From a virus (taxonomy: Duplodnaviria; Heunggongvirae; Uroviricota; Caudoviricetes): a stretch of DNA of 42,705 nucleotides. The notes under the pieces are model-generated. The model was given only the letters and a program-made list of their open reading frames with translations, had not been told where the DNA came from and did no database searches. Both the position numbers and the translations under genes were made by a program. This document shows, in pieces, positions 2,478-42,705 of this stretch. How positions within the stretch are numbered: position 1 is the first letter of the stretch; every line of letters starts with the position of its first letter. Location: IMG/VR virus record IMGVR_UViG_2778261632_000005, positions 1 through 42,705 of that record. One strand, 5' to 3'.

Positions 2478-2985
2478 ATGCTCCTCCCTGGCACTCCCCC
2501 TTCACGCCAATGCCAGCGGCTTGTAGTTCATCTTCTAGGTGACAAATCTCTTTCGCCATCCTCATTTGGTTGCTTTCGGCGCGGTCCTTGTAGTCACGGA
2601 AATCTCGCTCTACTTCTAATCGCTTCTCTCGGTGAATGCTTTCCAATGATTTAGCTTGGTGTAAATCCTCTGCCTGTCGCTCAAGCTTGAATCGCTGAAG
2701 TTCTACCAACTCATTTGCGGCTTCCAGCTCATCCATCAGCGCCACCACATCAGGGTCGCTAACATCGACGGCGATGACGCGTGACTGTTCGTAGTGGTAG
2801 TCAGCGATGCTGCGACCTTCTGCGTAATGCCCCCCAGCATCGTCATAAGTTGCTCCAGTACAACCGTAAGTAATTCGGCTGGCAGAAATACGCTGCACTG
2901 TCATTTCCGCGCCGCAAATGTGGCATTTAGGTACTGGCTGCGGTGAATAGCGCTCACGCAGCGCCTGTTTGTTGAGTGCTGTCAT
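2470..2985 (-). CDS. Hypothetical protein with N-terminal Cys-rich segment and coiled-coil C-terminus
   Basis: 171 aa ORF; CHICG...YGC putative zinc-binding pattern; charged heptad-like C-terminal half; stop overlaps the methyltransferase start. Confidence 0.55.
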   Translation of the reverse strand: MTALNKQALRERYSPQPVPKCHICGAEMTVQRISASRITYGCTGATYDDAGGHYAEGRSIADYHYEQSRVIAVDVSDPDVVALMDELEAANELVELQRFKLERQAEDLHQAKSLESIHREKRLEVERDFRDYKDRAESNQMRMAKEICHLEDELQAAGIGVKGECQGGACE

Positions 2986-5628: not shown

Positions 5629-5705
5629 TGGTGCAGCATGCAGGATTCGAACCTGCGACCCACGGCTTAGAAGGCCGCTGCTCTATCCATCTGAGCTAAT
5701 GCCAC
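5629..5705 (-). tRNA. tRNA-Arg (anticodon UCU), prophage-borne
   Basis: 77-nt cloverleaf read on the minus strand: D-arm GCTC/GAGC, anticodon loop CUUCUAA, T-arm GCAGG-UUCGAAU-CCUGC, 3' ACCA; the acceptor stem has two adjacent G-U pairs. Confidence 0.8.
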
Positions 5706-5885: not shown

Positions 5886-6386
5886 ATGGACAACAAATGG
5901 TTGCAGGAAGTACTGCGTTCAATCCTGCGTGACATAGACATTAGGCGTTTAATGCATATGCTAATCATTTTCGTCATTCTCACGGTGCTTTTGCCTGACT
6001 CTGTTAAGCAGTCTGTTGGTGCTCATAATCCGGAATTCCTTCCAGCTTTCAGCCTCTACTATCTGATGATCATCTGCGTAAGTTTTTTTATTTCTTCGCT
6101 TACCAGCTTCACTACTAAATCTCTTTTAAATGCGCTTCATACATTGGCTTTACGTATTCGAGTCATCATGCTTTCAGAACCTGAAAAGCAGTGCCTTCTG
6201 TCTTTCATAAAGACCGGTGACCATGTTGTGTATGCAAAAAATCACAATCCGGTGGTTGAGCAGTTGGTCTATAAAGGCATTCTTAGGAAAACCTACTCAC
6301 TAAATTGTGGCCCAGACATGGAAGGGTACGTCATAGAAGACAAATATCATTTCCACGTGTTAAGGCACTTATCTACCAGTCTTTGA
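5886..6386 (+). CDS. Membrane protein, putative superinfection-exclusion / abortive-infection candidate
   Basis: 166 aa ORF in an AT-rich island; two predicted TM helices then an 80-aa soluble domain; weak RBS; lies between the tRNA and the repressor. Confidence 0.5.
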   Translation: MDNKWLQEVLRSILRDIDIRRLMHMLIIFVILTVLLPDSVKQSVGAHNPEFLPAFSLYYLMIICVSFFISSLTSFTTKSLLNALHTLALRIRVIMLSEPEKQCLLSFIKTGDHVVYAKNHNPVVEQLVYKGILRKTYSLNCGPDMEGYVIEDKYHFHVLRHLSTSL

Positions 6387-6622
6387 CCAAAAAGCTTTAT
6401 CTTTAAAGCAAGCTTTTTAAGCGCAATAGAAATTAGTTTTTCCAGTCGACTTCTATTGCGACGTTCTCGCCTGACCAGCTCATCGAACGTATCAGGTAGG
6501 ACCTTAATATCTGCAGGCAGCTTTTTAAGGTCACAACCGCATTCTGGGCACTTCGTATAAAGTGGCTCAAATTTCCACGATCTAGACAATGCCTCCATCT
6601 TTCTGTTTGCGTATGTGCTCAT
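6347..6622 (-). CDS. Small putative zinc-ribbon protein (91 aa), first gene of the leftward early transcript
   Basis: CPECGC motif and a basic RRERRNRSR stretch; AAGGG RBS 8 nt upstream; 3' end overlaps the convergent 166-aa ORF by 40 nt. Confidence 0.5.
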   Translation of the reverse strand: MSTYANRKMEALSRSWKFEPLYTKCPECGCDLKKLPADIKVLPDTFDELVRRERRNRSRLEKLISIALKKLALKIKLFGQRLVDKCLNTWK

Positions 6623-6691
6623 TACATGCCCTTACATTTATTCCCGGGTTTTACCAGATGAATGTAACTATGGGGTCGTCTGATGTGTTTT

Positions 6692-6746
6692 AAATGTACC
6701 TTTAGTTACCATCATGGTCAAGTAAGTTAATGTACTTTTTGTTACC
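6692..6746. promoter_or_regulatory. Two tandem operator-like repeats (putative OL / pL region)
   Basis: AAATGTACCTTTAGTTACC (6692-6710) and TTAATGTACTTTTTGTTACC (6727-6746); a third copy at 7501-7521. Confidence 0.55.
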
Positions 6747-6798
6747 TTGGTGGCGAAAAAAAATGCCAGAATGATATCTGGCATTAGAAATGAGTTAC

Positions 6799-7458
6799 TT
6801 AGATGTTCTGCGTTATCTGAACAACTTTGCCTACAATGCGGCAATTGCCATCAATGGGGATCGGCTTAAAGGCGGGATTAAGCGGCATGAGATATGAGTA
6901 AGGGCTATCCCAAACAAGTTTCTTCACAGTCGCTTCTGCTGAACCATCAAGTATTGCAACGACAATTTTCCCATACAGGTCATCAAGTTGTCCGTAATGT
7001 GGCTCAACAATAACGATTGAGCCCTCCGGAATTGATGGAAGTCCATGTGGGTTAGTCATTGACTCACCACGAACTACCAATCCGAAAACTTCATCAGAAA
7101 CGTTTGCTGTGGTTTGAGTCCATGAAATCACATCAGTAAGCCTTGAACATGCATAGGTATCAGTCCATACCCCGGCCTGAACAGCAGAGATAATAGGAAC
7201 GGCGGTAGGTGGCTTCAGGTATGGGATAACTTTGGTGTCATCTTGAGTCTCATCACCCTTGCCGTAAAGAATCCATTCAGGAGTGGTCTGTAAAGCCATC
7301 GCTAGTTGGTGAAGGTTTTCTCCGTCAGGCTTAGTTGTACCGTTCTCCCATTTGGTAACGGACACTCTACTCACCCCAAGGCGTTTAGCCAGGGTCTGCT
7401 GAGTTATATCGAGCTGGACTCGCCGGGATCTTATTCGGTCTTTCATCTCTGTTTTCAT
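6799..7458 (-). CDS. cI: Prophage repressor, cI-like (HTH plus LexA-type S24 autopeptidase)
   Basis: N-terminal HTH (QQTLAKRLGVSRVSVTKWENG), Ala-Gly cleavage site (VQAGVW), Ser nucleophile GESM and Lys (TVKKL). Confidence 0.9.
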   Translation of the reverse strand: MKTEMKDRIRSRRVQLDITQQTLAKRLGVSRVSVTKWENGTTKPDGENLHQLAMALQTTPEWILYGKGDETQDDTKVIPYLKPPTAVPIISAVQAGVWTDTYACSRLTDVISWTQTTANVSDEVFGLVVRGESMTNPHGLPSIPEGSIVIVEPHYGQLDDLYGKIVVAILDGSAEATVKKLVWDSPYSYLMPLNPAFKPIPIDGNCRIVGKVVQITQNI

Positions 7459-7550
7459 GTAACCAATGTTACATTGATTCCTTGTAACTGTTGTTTGCTA
7501 TTTAATGTACCTTTTGTTACCTTTAAGGCGTGAGTTAACCAGGAGGAACC
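7459..7550. promoter_or_regulatory. Divergent repressor/cro promoter-operator region (OR-like)
   Basis: Third operator-like repeat TTTAATGTACCTTTTGTTACC at 7501-7521 plus GTTAC/GTAAC half-site-like motifs at 7465-7490; AGGAGG RBS before cro. Confidence 0.55.
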
Positions 7551-7748
7551 ATGTTTAAAACTGACGTCATAGAACACTTCGGAGGGGTATCAAAAACCGC
7601 GAGTGTTTTGGGAATTTCCCATCCTGCAGTGTGCAGATGGGGTGATGTGATCCCTCAGAAGCAAGCTTTTGTTATCGAACGTATCACTAAGGGCAAGCTT
7701 AAATACGATGCCAGCCTTTACCAAAAGTCTACAGACACAGCAGCTTAA
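7551..7748 (+). CDS. cro: Cro-like small HTH regulator
   Basis: 65 aa, divergent from the repressor; HTH (SKTASVLGISHPAVCRW); AGGAGG RBS. Confidence 0.7.
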   Translation: MFKTDVIEHFGGVSKTASVLGISHPAVCRWGDVIPQKQAFVIERITKGKLKYDASLYQKSTDTAA

Positions 7749-7773
7749 ACATAACTACCAAAGGAAAAACAAG

Positions 7774-8238
7774 ATGGTAGAGCAAACCCTGAAGGAAGTA
7801 GTGAAAGCGATGTGCAAGGCGTACCCCGGAGGCCGTCAGGCTATGGCTGGTGCGTTGGGCATGTCAGAAACCCAGTTCAACAACAACCTTTACGAGAAAA
7901 ACGGTTGTCGTTTCTTTGAAGTCACCGAGTTGGAAGCGATGGAAGACATTTCCAACACGTCATTGGTTGCTGACTACTTTGCCAAGCGTCGCGGCGCACT
8001 GCTGGTGGACGTACCAAACCTGGAAGATCTGGACCGTGTTGACTTGTTCAGCCGTGCAATGCGCACAGCAGCTGCAAGAGGGCAGGTTGATCAGATTATC
8101 CAGAAGGCGCTTGAGGATGGAGTTATTGAAAAGCATGAAGCCGAAGAGATTCAGGAACATCACCGCCGTCATCTGGCAGCGCGTGAAGAAGAAATCCGCG
8201 CGATTGTGGCCTTATTCAGCCGCCGTCAAAAGAAGTGA
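7774..8238 (+). CDS. CII-like / YdaT-like regulator
   Basis: 154 aa immediately after cro; AAGGA RBS; the ORF is open from 7669 but the first ATG with an RBS is 7774. Confidence 0.55.
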   Translation: MVEQTLKEVVKAMCKAYPGGRQAMAGALGMSETQFNNNLYEKNGCRFFEVTELEAMEDISNTSLVADYFAKRRGALLVDVPNLEDLDRVDLFSRAMRTAAARGQVDQIIQKALEDGVIEKHEAEEIQEHHRRHLAAREEEIRAIVALFSRRQKK

Positions 8239-10888: not shown

Positions 10889-11206
10889 GTGAACAAACTT
10901 ACCGTGAGACAAAGTGAAGTACTTGGTTCGATCGTTAACTATCAGCGCCGGTTCGGATTCCCTCCAACGATATGTGAACTGGCTGGGCTGATTGGTTGCT
11001 CATCACCGAACGCAGCAGCGGAGCATGTGAAGGCCATAGCGAAGAAGGGATATATCTCAGTAGCACCTGGAGTTTCCAGGGGGATCACCGTTATTTCAGG
11101 AAATGATGAGGCAGACGCGATATCGATCATCAAGTCACTCATTAACGGTGAGAGTGATTCAAGAGAACGCGCCTTGTCATGGCTGGAAGCGAGGGGTGTT
11201 CAGTAA
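10889..11206 (+). CDS. LexA N-terminal DNA-binding-domain-only protein
   Basis: 105 aa, GTG start with AAGGAG RBS; resembles the LexA winged-helix domain (FPPTICELAGLIG-SSPNAAAEHVKAIAKKGYI); no S24 peptidase domain. Confidence 0.7.
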   Translation: MNKLTVRQSEVLGSIVNYQRRFGFPPTICELAGLIGCSSPNAAAEHVKAIAKKGYISVAPGVSRGITVISGNDEADAISIIKSLINGESDSRERALSWLEARGVQ

Positions 11207-11611: not shown

Positions 11612-12337
11612 ATGCAACAGATGAGCATAACAGTAACGTGTCCGACCCATCATGCAGCAACGATAGGGCAGCAGATCACCATGTCCAGCCGTGAAATTGC
11701 GAAACTGGTTGATTCCCGGCACAGCAATGTCTGCGTAACGATAGAGCGCCTCATGAATTCCGGTGTGATTGGAGGGTATGCTGCATTGCAGTACACCCAT
11801 CCCCAGAACGGGCAGACCTACCATCACTATGAAGTGAACAAACGAGACAGCTATGTGATCGTTGCTCAATTATCGCCGGAGTTTACCGCCCGACTTGTTG
11901 ACCGCTGGCAGGAACTGGAGAGCAACGGTGGAATGATTGTTCCCCGGTCACTTCCTGAGGCACTGCGCCTTGCTGCTGATCTGGCAGAACAGAAACAGCG
12001 CCTGAGTGAAGAACTGGCAGTTGCAGCACCGAAGGCCGAGTTCGTTGATCGTTATGTTACGGCTACTGGGTCAATGACTTTCCGGCAGGTTGCCAAGCTG
12101 CTTAACGCCAAAGAGCCAGAGTTTGCGATGTTCCTGATTGAGAACGGCATCATGTACCGGCTTAACCGTGTTCTCACACCAAAGAGCAAGCATATCGAAG
12201 CAGGGCGCTTTGAGGTGAAGACGGGCACGACAAACCAGACAAATTATGCGTTCAATCAGTCCCGCTTCACCGCCAAGGGTGTTCGCTGGATTGGTGGCCT
12301 GTGGGCAGAGCATATTGCTAAGGGGCAGGTAGCGTGA
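11612..12337 (+). CDS. Rha-family phage regulatory protein / antirepressor-like
   Basis: 241 aa; Rha-like N-terminus (MSSREIAKLVDSRHSNV) with an antirepressor-type C-terminus; GGAGA RBS. Confidence 0.65.
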   Translation: MQQMSITVTCPTHHAATIGQQITMSSREIAKLVDSRHSNVCVTIERLMNSGVIGGYAALQYTHPQNGQTYHHYEVNKRDSYVIVAQLSPEFTARLVDRWQELESNGGMIVPRSLPEALRLAADLAEQKQRLSEELAVAAPKAEFVDRYVTATGSMTFRQVAKLLNAKEPEFAMFLIENGIMYRLNRVLTPKSKHIEAGRFEVKTGTTNQTNYAFNQSRFTAKGVRWIGGLWAEHIAKGQVA

Positions 12338-13335: not shown

Positions 13336-14166
13336 ATGGATCTCGATAATGTTGTTAAATTTTTTGCCCCAAAAGGAATGCATATTTCCGATAGTGTTCG
13401 CGCTACTGCTAGTGAACAACTAACAGTAACTGATGTTATGGCAGCTCTTGGCATGACCCAGGCAGACGCTGGAATTGGCCTTGCCATGTATCTTGGTAAG
13501 GCTGGGGTAAGTAAGCAGGACAGAGAAGCATCAATAAACTGGCTTGCTGAATACGCCAAAGAATCCGCGCCTTTTGCAGTTCGCCGCCTAGCCGGTAAAA
13601 AATTCCCTCTATGTATGCTCATCTTGGCTAAGTTCGCCTATAACGACTATGCATCATCAGCTGCTGATGTATTCGATTGTCCTAAATGCAATGGCAAAGG
13701 GCTAATTGAAAAAGTTGTAACGGTAACTAAAAGCCATTACACAATGAGGCTTCCGCAATGGGCCAAAGACTTCGGGCAGTCACCATCTTATTTCGAAAAG
13801 AAGCGTGAGGTTAAGGATATTGAGCAATCACTCTGCACTAAATGTCACGGAACCGGAAAGCTAAGCAAGCGCTGCCAGTGTGGTGGGACAGGAAAGACGC
13901 TGGACCGAAAAGCAACAGATCTTCAGGGCGTACCGGTTTATAAGGAATGCAAACGCTGTGAAGGTCGCGGTTACAGCAGACCAAAATCCTCCGTTGCTTA
14001 CCGGGGTATCTTTTCCGAACTTCCAAGCCTTCCAGATCGTACTTGGCGCTATAGCTGGAAACCATTCTATGAAATGCTCGTTTCTCGTTGTTTCCAGGAA
14101 GAGAGCTATTCAAATACACAATTGAAAAAAGTTACCAGAAACGAAAGTTTGAGCGATATCGCGTAA
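13336..14166 (+). CDS. Q: Late antiterminator, Q-like
   Basis: Sits just before a promoter-terminator region and the lysis genes; Cys-rich zinc-finger-like motifs (CPKCNGKG, CTKCHGTGK, CQCGGTGK, CKRCEGRG). Confidence 0.65.
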   Translation: MDLDNVVKFFAPKGMHISDSVRATASEQLTVTDVMAALGMTQADAGIGLAMYLGKAGVSKQDREASINWLAEYAKESAPFAVRRLAGKKFPLCMLILAKFAYNDYASSAADVFDCPKCNGKGLIEKVVTVTKSHYTMRLPQWAKDFGQSPSYFEKKREVKDIEQSLCTKCHGTGKLSKRCQCGGTGKTLDRKATDLQGVPVYKECKRCEGRGYSRPKSSVAYRGIFSELPSLPDRTWRYSWKPFYEMLVSRCFQEESYSNTQLKKVTRNESLSDIA

Positions 14167-16753: not shown

Positions 16754-17017
16754 TCATTACAAAGCTCATCTGCTGGTGGACTATAAACAGATAGCATTAC
16801 AGCAGGCATTCACTGAGTGCCTGTGATAATGTCAAATTGTGGTGAATGCGCAGGCTGATGCGCGTGCAACAGCTACTCATTGAAACGGTAGTTATGTCGG
16901 AGTTCAGCACCGGCCACCACACCTAATTGAATTGTCAGTGGCTAGGGTAGCTCCTGAAAAGCGGCATCGTCACCGCCTGCCACTGATAACATGACGAGCA
17001 ACTAAGACGAGGTTGTG

Positions 17018-42528: not shown

Positions 42529-42705
42529 AGCATCTAACTACTGTTACGCCATATGGGTTGGACTGAAGCGGCTGACCTGATTGTTAAAGGTATGGAAGGC
42601 GCAATCAATGCGAAGACCGTAACCTATGACTTCGAACGTCTGATGGAAGGCGCTAAACTGCTGAAATGTTCAGAGTTTGGTGACGCGATCATCAAGAATA
42701 TGTAA
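42529..42705 (+). pseudogene. icd: 3' fragment of the isocitrate dehydrogenase gene (icd), prophage junction remnant
   Basis: Encodes [55 protein letters not shown], recalled as near-identical to the E. coli Icd C-terminus; an in-frame TAA lies immediately upstream, so only the 3' end is present. Confidence 0.8.

Follow-up and report, generated by a model that had tools for sequence, protein, structure and literature searches.

What binds the short repeats on either side of the cI repressor gene of an Escherichia coli prophage, and what do they control? We analysed the IMG/VR virus record IMGVR_UViG_2778261632_000005 (Caudoviricetes) from position 1 to position 42,705, and this whole stretch is referred to here as the window. 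A first-pass annotation had picked out three copies of a 19–20 bp motif, two just downstream of cI and one in the gap between cI and cro, had read them as the likely operators of the repressor and of Cro, and had placed the leftward early promoter directly next to the 3′ end of cI. Very probably the repeats are indeed binding sites of the repressor and Cro, in a P22-type lambdoid immunity region of an E. coli prophage located beside icd. The gene identities, the overlap with promoters, the conservation and a P22-like layout, all read from sequence, support this assignment.

We searched both strands of the whole 42.7-kb window for the degenerate 20-mer TWAATGTACYTTTWGTTACC, allowing up to three mismatches. 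Three matches only were returned, all on the plus strand and all without a mismatch:

6691–6710, plus strand, copy 1, TAAATGTACCTTTAGTTACC
6727–6746, plus strand, copy 2, TTAATGTACTTTTTGTTACC
7502–7521, plus strand, copy 3, TTAATGTACCTTTTGTTACC

By 100 dinucleotide shuffles, 0.01 matches per window are expected, and none of them gave three, which bears out the existence of the three copies. The coordinates first given for copy 2 are exact, whereas those of copies 1 and 3 were each shifted by one base. Matches to the core motif at 13426, 23397, 36956 and 42532 are at chance level and were dismissed. The two genes bordered by the repeats are:

6799–7458, minus strand, cI repressor, 219 amino acids, with an N-terminal helix-turn-helix (HTH) and a C-terminal S24 self-cleavage domain (Pfam HTH_3, 3e-16; Peptidase_S24, 2e-22)
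7551–7748, plus strand, cro, 65 amino acids (Pfam P22_Cro, 1.3e-22)

On these coordinates the placement originally described is correct: copies 1 and 2 lie 53–108 bp past the cI stop codon and copy 3 is inside the 92-bp cI–cro intergenic region. The best match of cI in the PDB is full-length lambda cI (3BDN, 1.5e-22), and the N-terminal domain of P22 c2 (1ADR, 2R1J, 3JXB) is among the matches.

The sequence GTAACCAATGTTAC at 7459–7472 is a perfect inverted repeat and resembles the three copies in both orientations. When all sites are aligned on the operator around it (OR3 below), they fit ATGTA(A/C)C-N4-GTTAC(A/C)(T/A), and the predicted operator unit is an 18-bp pseudo-palindrome of 7+4+7 format with the half-site A(T/G)GTA(A/C)C and an A/T-rich centre. 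We built a symmetrised half-site weight matrix from 68 sites of 17 related loci, with the window excluded, and then scanned it over the window. Four sites stand out with scores of 18.1–23.6, the next best in the window scoring 8.7, and a score of at least 16 was reached in none of 30 Markov-shuffled windows against four times in the real one. All four strong 18-mers are confined to 6694–7522. The left (OL) and right (OR) operators are listed here without strand, together with two weak sites and with their positions relative to the leftward early promoter PL and the rightward promoter PR:

6694–6711, OL1, predicted operator, ATGTACC TTTA GTTACCA, score 18.7; core of copy 1, across the spacer and −10 of PL
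6730–6747, OL2, predicted operator, ATGTACT TTTT GTTACCT, score 18.1; core of copy 2, 8 bp upstream of the PL −35
7457–7474, OR3, predicted operator, ATGTAAC CAAT GTTACAT, score 23.6, the highest in the window; overlaps the cI start codon (7456–7458) by two bases
7505–7522, OR1, predicted operator, ATGTACC TTTT GTTACCT, score 22.5; core of copy 3, within the spacer and −10 of the proposed PR
7482–7499, OR2, probable weak site, TTGTAAC TGTT GTTTGCT, score 5.0, rank 8 in the window; left half good (8.0), right half poor; overlaps the −35 of the proposed PR
6662–6679, OL3-like, weak or degenerate third left site, ATGTAAC TATG GGGTCGT, score 4.6, rank 10 of about 42,700 positions; left half perfect (11.8), right half decayed

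The 7-bp arms of OR3 are perfectly symmetric, and OR1, OL1 and OL2 fit the consensus at 12–13 of 14 arm positions. The central four base pairs of the strong sites are TTTT, TTTA, TTTT and CAAT. Start to start, OL1 and OL2 are 36 bp apart, OR3 and OR2 25 bp, and OR2 and OR1 23 bp. We accept 7482–7499 as a weak OR2 mainly because these OR spacings equal those of the P22 type exactly. The OL3-like site would lie at about +8 to +25 from the start of PL.

A consensus scan of 6300–7800 found a single sigma-70 promoter, TTGACC-17-TACATT, on the minus strand from 6721 to 6693. The promoters and the terminator of cI are placed as follows:

6693–6721, minus strand, PL, leftward early promoter; −35 TTGACC (6721–6716), 17-bp spacer, −10 TACATT (6698–6693), inferred start near 6686
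7495–7523, plus strand, PR, proposed; −35 TTGCTA (7495–7500), 17-bp spacer, −10 TACCTT (7518–7523), inferred start near 7530
6762–6785, minus strand, intrinsic terminator of cI; 9-bp stem, then TTTTTTCGCC, between the cI stop codon and OL2

PL is built of the −35 hexamer, 4 nt, the 18-bp OL1 and then a T, this T and the five operator bases before it making up the −10 hexamer. The proposed PR has an identical register (−35, 4 nt, the 18-bp OR1, T). Transcription starting near 7530 would yield a 20-nt leader with the Shine–Dalgarno sequence AGGAGG at 7541–7546, followed by the cro ATG. We call PR inferred because its score falls under the threshold of the scan; its TTGCT and TACCTT do not vary among the 18 sequences compared. 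The position homologous to the P22 promoter (−10 TTTAAT, 7501–7506) was retained as a minor alternative for PR only, as its −35 region is not conserved and its −10 is without A2. For the maintenance promoter of cI (PRM), a TACATT on the minus strand within copy 3 was dropped because its final T is not conserved in relatives, and a −10 of TAACAT within OR3 was rejected: this would give a leaderless cI mRNA with OR2 at about −32 and no recognisable −35.

The palindromic reading is favoured because the 20-mer points in opposite ways relative to PL and PR, whereas the 18-mer has the same register at both. The 19–20 bp length of the motif as first described would then stem from the promoter hexamers, the AAT to the left of OL1 ending the PL −10 and the CT(T) to the right of OR1 ending the PR −10; among relatives, the AAT on the left side of OR1 varies. 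Thus the repeats of the first-pass annotation exist, but the functional unit appears to be the 18-bp pseudo-palindrome, with the extra conserved bases belonging to the −10 hexamers. Three of the four strong sites were on its list, from which the top-scoring OR3 and the weak OR2 were missing. Its leftward early promoter abutting the 3′ end of cI agrees with the consensus PL.

We compared the window with 17 relatives, namely three phage records (L001–L003) and 14 genome loci; a fourth phage record also carries the repressor. In the four phage records and the 14 genome loci the repressor is 67–94% identical to the cI of the window. The genome loci come from Pseudescherichia, Kluyvera, Phytobacter, Buttiauxella, Mangrovibacter, Kosakonia, Edwardsiella, Rahnella, Klebsiella, Yersinia, Chania and one assembly labelled Chryseobacterium; with Klebsiella and Escherichia also among the relatives, about a dozen enterobacterial genera are represented overall. 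The Chryseobacterium sp. locus (L006, CACSKA010000005.1) has an enterobacterial-type immunity region with a repressor 90% identical to that of the window, and this assembly is probably mislabelled or contaminated.

The operators and the proposed −35 and −10 hexamers are kept across the 17 relatives, while the gaps between operators vary. In an ungapped comparison of OR in 18 sequences, identity is at least 90% at 14 of the 18 columns of OR3 and at 17 of the 18 columns of OR1, and no column of the 7-bp gap between OR3 and OR2 reaches 90%; these column figures are conservative because one of the 18 sequences is out of register. Sixteen of the 17 relatives have an identical OR1, the other (L005) having one changed base, and the OR3–OR1 offset is 48 bp in all 17. 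The left half of OR2, GTAAC, is kept in most relatives despite the variable 7-bp gap that adjoins it. On the left side OL1 is nearly invariant in 16 relatives, in all of which OL2 lies 34–35 bp from it. Between the PL −35 and OL2 (6722–6729) the window is one base longer, with 36 bp from OL1 to OL2 in place of the 34–35 bp of the 16 relatives having the left operator. Every relative with a left operator has the PL elements GTCAA (−35) and AATGTA (AAGGTA in L013), and their flanks diverge. A hairpin with an A-run is also kept at the position of the cI terminator, with differing stem sequences. An intact third left site (ATGTAAC-N4-GGTAC) is found in L001, L002 and L013, 32 bp to the left of OL1 and downstream of the PL start; at this position the window keeps the left half and has GGGTC as right half, and the other relatives differ in sequence.

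The closest phage records are Klebsiella phages ST101-KPC2phi6.3 and ST13-OXA48phi12.2 and Escherichia phages vB_EcoS-733R5 and vB_EcoS-716R3. Their cI is up to 94.5% identical to that of the window, their DNA is 77–83% identical over cI–cro–cII, and OL1, OL2, OR3, OR2 and OR1 are the same. They differ from the window in the genes to the left of OL, homology starting at window position 6653, and in having the third left site intact.

The layout has its closest parallel in P22. The P22 repressor binds six rotationally symmetric sites with the 18-bp consensus ATTTAAGATATCTTAAAT, contacts operator positions 2–7 and 12–17 and not the central four base pairs, and binds operators with A-tract or A/T-rich centres best (PMC4267663; PMC5175364). 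As P22-type reference we used Salmonella phage SF11, a Lederbergvirus (L022), in which c2 starts with MNTQLMGERIRARR and the operators match the published P22 consensus. The cI of the window is 44% identical to this c2 over 209 amino acids, and the two Cro proteins are 46% identical. The operator format of 18 bp, 7+4+7 with an A/T-rich centre, is common to both. In the reference the sites start at 1354 (OL1), 1389 (OL2), 2125 (OR3), 2150 (OR2) and 2173 (OR1), so that OR spacings of 25 and 23 bp occur in both and OL1–OL2 is 35 bp in the P22 type compared to 36 bp in the window and 34–35 bp in the relatives. In both loci OR3 adjoins the start codon of the repressor (it follows the c2 start codon directly in the reference), PL consists of TTGACC, 4 nt, OL1 and T, and there are no genes between the repressor and PL.

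Differences from P22 are seen on both sides. The proposed PR is about 20 bp further to the right relative to the operators, with no conserved −35 at the P22-homologous position. We looked for a third left site where P22 has OL3 (about 6749–6766) and found nothing there, the cI terminator filling the space; the weak site downstream of the PL start is present instead. The CII-like gene is c1 in P22 and of CP76/YmfL type in the window. Most relevant to immunity is the half-site, ATTTAAG in P22 and ATGTAAC or ATGTACC in the window, which has five of seven positions in common (A1, T2, T4, A5, A6) and differs at positions 3 and 7. None of the window operators matches the P22 consensus ATTTAAG-N4-CTTAAAT, suggesting the same architecture with another specificity and hence not P22 immunity. 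In the recognition region Val33 of P22, which is inserted into a thymine-methyl pocket, is conserved as V32 in the window cI. The changes from P22 to the window are N32 to R31, A34 to S33, S36 to T35, Q37 to K36 and N46 to D45, of which the replacements at R31, K36 and D45 may cause the half-site change at positions 3 and 7. Since the recognition-helix residues differ, the window phage should be heteroimmune to P22.

This relation between helix and half-site extends to further repressors. Every relative with the window's operators also has the recognition helix GVSRVSVTKWE, and four groups can be set side by side:

window group, recognition helix GVSRVSVTKWE, operator ATGTAAC-N4-GTTACAT
Xenorhabdus relative (repressor 45% identical), recognition helix GVSPSAVTQWE, operator AGTAAG-N4-CTTACT
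phage LLS (repressor 46% identical), recognition helix GVSDVAVGYWE, operator ACTAAG-N4-CTTAGT
P22 type, recognition helix GVSNVAISQWE, operator ATTTAAG-N4-CTTAAAT

As predicted from these sequences, the operator format with its N4 centre is constant and the half-site bases change with the helix.

Could the repeats be something else? Chance similarity of A/T-rich intergenic sequences has nothing in its favour beyond the A/T richness of the regions, and with three copies against 0.01 expected, four sites scoring at least 16 against none in shuffled windows, and conservation across genera, its probability is next to nil. Part of the conservation of the repeats does reflect promoter function, since copy 1 contains the PL −10 (TACATT on the minus strand) and copy 3 the proposed PR −10 (TACCTT). 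That the repeats are nothing but duplicated −10 and spacer segments, with the true operators elsewhere, is nevertheless improbable: OL2 and OR3 are conserved equally and no convincing promoter uses either, the 18-bp block extends to the half-site distal to the promoter, which sigma-70 does not use for recognition, and the AAT flank of copy 3 varies in relatives (TACATC, TACATG or CACATC on the minus strand), so there is no −10 there. Moreover, a repeat search found no further repeated or palindromic motif in either intergenic region.

Two other explanations, slightly less probable still and about equal to one another, concern which protein binds and how. The prophage encodes a CII-like activator of the CP76/YmfL family, a second small LexA-family protein (about 10889–11206) and a KilAC antirepressor; the CII-like protein, the second LexA-family protein or host LexA might be imagined as the ligand in place of cI and Cro. 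The consensus of the SOS box is CTGT-N8-ACAG, and this pattern was not found in the three copies or in OR3. An establishment promoter of the CII type would be expected downstream of cro and directed leftward, not at OL. The sites lie over PL, over PR and at the cI start, where immunity operators lie, and each agrees in position with its P22 counterpart; in addition, the half-site varies together with the cI recognition helix across relatives. As to the mode of binding, the three reported copies are direct copies in one orientation, and in each of them GGTAAC and GGTACA (minus strand, 10–11 bp apart) could be read head-to-tail as a direct repeat of tandem half-sites, like those of the P2 C repressor; such operators are known for P2-type repressors (PMC2995052). 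But OR3, the best site and one kept in 17 of 17 relatives, is the perfect inverted repeat ATGTAAC-N4-GTTACAT and cannot be read in this way. The repressor is homologous to P22 c2, a dimeric binder of rotationally symmetric sites, and is of c2/cI rather than P2 C type. The equal register at PL and PR arises only with palindromes, and clearly palindromic operators, again with N4 between the arms, are found in the Xenorhabdus and LLS relatives.

Several points weigh against palindromic operators of cI and Cro as the explanation. The three reported copies all lie on the plus strand with a kept asymmetry (GTACC left, GTAAC right), which a symmetric-dimer model does not require. OR2 (5.0) and the third left site (4.6) each have one good half-site, and their scores are not individually significant. 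PR is under the threshold of the consensus scan, with a −10 (TACCTT) matching at 3 of 6 positions, and PRM could not be placed by consensus in the cI–cro region. The covariation of helix and half-site is based on only four specificity groups, and a string search of the literature on both strands found no paper containing the 14-mer operator cores.

Operators of the P22 kind would explain the arrangement as a switch. The sequences show the sites, their statistical excess and conservation, the consensus matches of promoter and terminator, and the likeness to P22 in homology and geometry; that the proteins bind, with what order of affinities and cooperativity, and where transcription starts and PRM lies, we infer. 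Judged from its homology with P22 c2, cI would recognise the 18-bp 7+4+7 pseudo-palindromes as a dimer without contacting the centre. Bound to OL1 and OR1 it would keep RNA polymerase out by covering the spacer and −10 at both PL and PR. Leftward early transcription, predicted to start about 110 bp past the cI stop codon and just beyond the cI terminator, would be shut off since OL1 lies across the PL spacer and −10 and OL2 just upstream of the −35, and cI on OR1 would block the transcription of cro from PR. Further cooperative occupancy, as in P22, would come from OL2, which begins 8 bp before the PL −35, and from the weak OR2, which overlaps the −35 of PR and is itself probably filled cooperatively. 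Binding of Cro or of excess repressor to OR3 would turn cI off, because this site lies over the cI start codon and over the stretch in which the maintenance promoter must be located. Upon induction, RecA-stimulated self-cleavage at the S24 domain would free the sites.

We also considered an unusual hierarchy of sites. OR3, the only perfectly symmetric and the top-scoring site, is over the cI start, OR2 is very weak, and part of the lineage has a third left site downstream of the PL start and not upstream of it. If OR3 were the tightest site for the repressor, autorepression of cI would set in before PR is fully shut off, and the asymmetry of OR1, OL1 and OL2 (GTACC versus GTAAC halves in one genomic orientation) could let cI and Cro discriminate between sites. 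We regard such a hierarchy as unlikely; if true, it would depart from the occupancy order of lambda and P22 and be comparable to the atypical switch of 933W.

The immunity region is flanked by further prophage genes:

7774–8238, plus strand, CII-like activator gene of the CP76/YmfL family, the first gene after cro (Pfam Phage_CP76, 7.8e-15; PHROG 101, CII-like transcriptional activator, 6.5e-45)
5886–6386, plus strand, sieB, opposite the PL operon
5629–5705, minus strand, tRNA-Arg (anticodon TCT), in the leftward early operon between sieB and the early-left genes

The first reading frame that follows PL (6347–6622, minus strand) encodes 91 amino acids, occupies the place of N and includes an arginine-rich stretch, RRERRNRSR. 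Neither Pfam nor PHROGs gave a match for it; it is unannotated in the 99.8% identical E. coli genome and is not common to the relatives, the homology of which starts at 6653. Downstream of the replication genes, annotation transferred from the twin genome places the second small LexA-family protein (about 10889–11206, plus strand) and a KilAC-domain antirepressor (11621–12337, plus strand), which may form a second, antirepressor-based route of induction. Rfam searches of the immunity region, in the window and the relatives, gave nothing at the gathering score. The Rfam int-alpA RNA matches 16935–16999 (plus strand) with 43.2 bits against a gathering score of 35.8; this match falls in the late region, a long way from the integrase, which is encoded at the window's left end.

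Two other known systems bear comparison. Lambda also has divergent cI and cro genes around a tripartite OR, an OL at PL beyond cI, an S24 self-cleavage domain, and sieB on the opposite side to the PL operon. Its operators, however, are 17 bp long and unrelated in sequence, rexAB separates cI from OL, and PL is preceded by three OL sites side by side, whereas in the window OL1 and OL2 are 36 bp apart and flank the −35. Closer by location is e14. Two complete E. coli genomes hold the region of the window at 99.8% identity, in a prophage beside icd, the e14 attachment locus; e14 of E. coli K-12 (ymfK–ymfT/croE–ymfL) thus has the same integration site. The strains PCP07014 and 23CRST032 have a region of this identity. 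It also has the same gene order, with a LexA-like repressor, Cro and a YmfL-type CII-like protein, and NCBI annotation names the third gene of the window YmfL family. Nevertheless, identity of immunity with e14 was ruled out: YmfK shares with the window cI the S24 domain only (31% over 132 amino acids), the HTH does not align, and the e14 palindromes differ, being built on TGTACC/GGTACA. These palindromes lie in the ymfK–ymfT gap and beyond ymfK (L021 3440–3530 and 2680–2720; for example CTTGTACCGTTAAGGTACAAG) and, judged by sequence, are probable YmfK operators with a related half-site and another spacing.

e14 also has a structured leader after PL, which the window is without. L004, L006–L008, L010–L012, L014–L017 and e14 (L021 about 2600–2680, minus strand) share a conserved element of some 65 nt (CAACAGCGAACAGGCAGGACGCCCACGAAGTAGCCGCC..GGCGTATGAAG..GATGATTCGC) that directly follows the predicted start of PL and is absent from the window. 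Its consensus fold has 15 pairs, five of them with compensatory double changes, and it matched no Rfam family at the gathering score. In e14-like prophages the element could act as a leader or antitermination RNA.

In the literature on Cro and operator half-site catalogues we found only work on N15, phiKO2, PY54, 933W and P2. The closest phage records carry no operator annotation, and we found no published operator data for them. The region is an ordinary lysis–lysogeny switch with an uncharacterised immunity type, that is, a new specificity in a well-understood kind of switch and no new mechanism. Together with P22, LLS and the Xenorhabdus relative, the window group makes up a natural c2-type series in which the 7+4+7 format is kept while the half-site bases and a few helix residues are changed. 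Such a series, mainly as a comparative data point, may be useful for rules of HTH–DNA recognition and for orthogonal repressor/operator pairs. For the prophage family itself, which includes prophages of carbapenemase-producing Klebsiella, the analysis defines the predicted operator sequence, the promoter layout and a probable heteroimmunity group.

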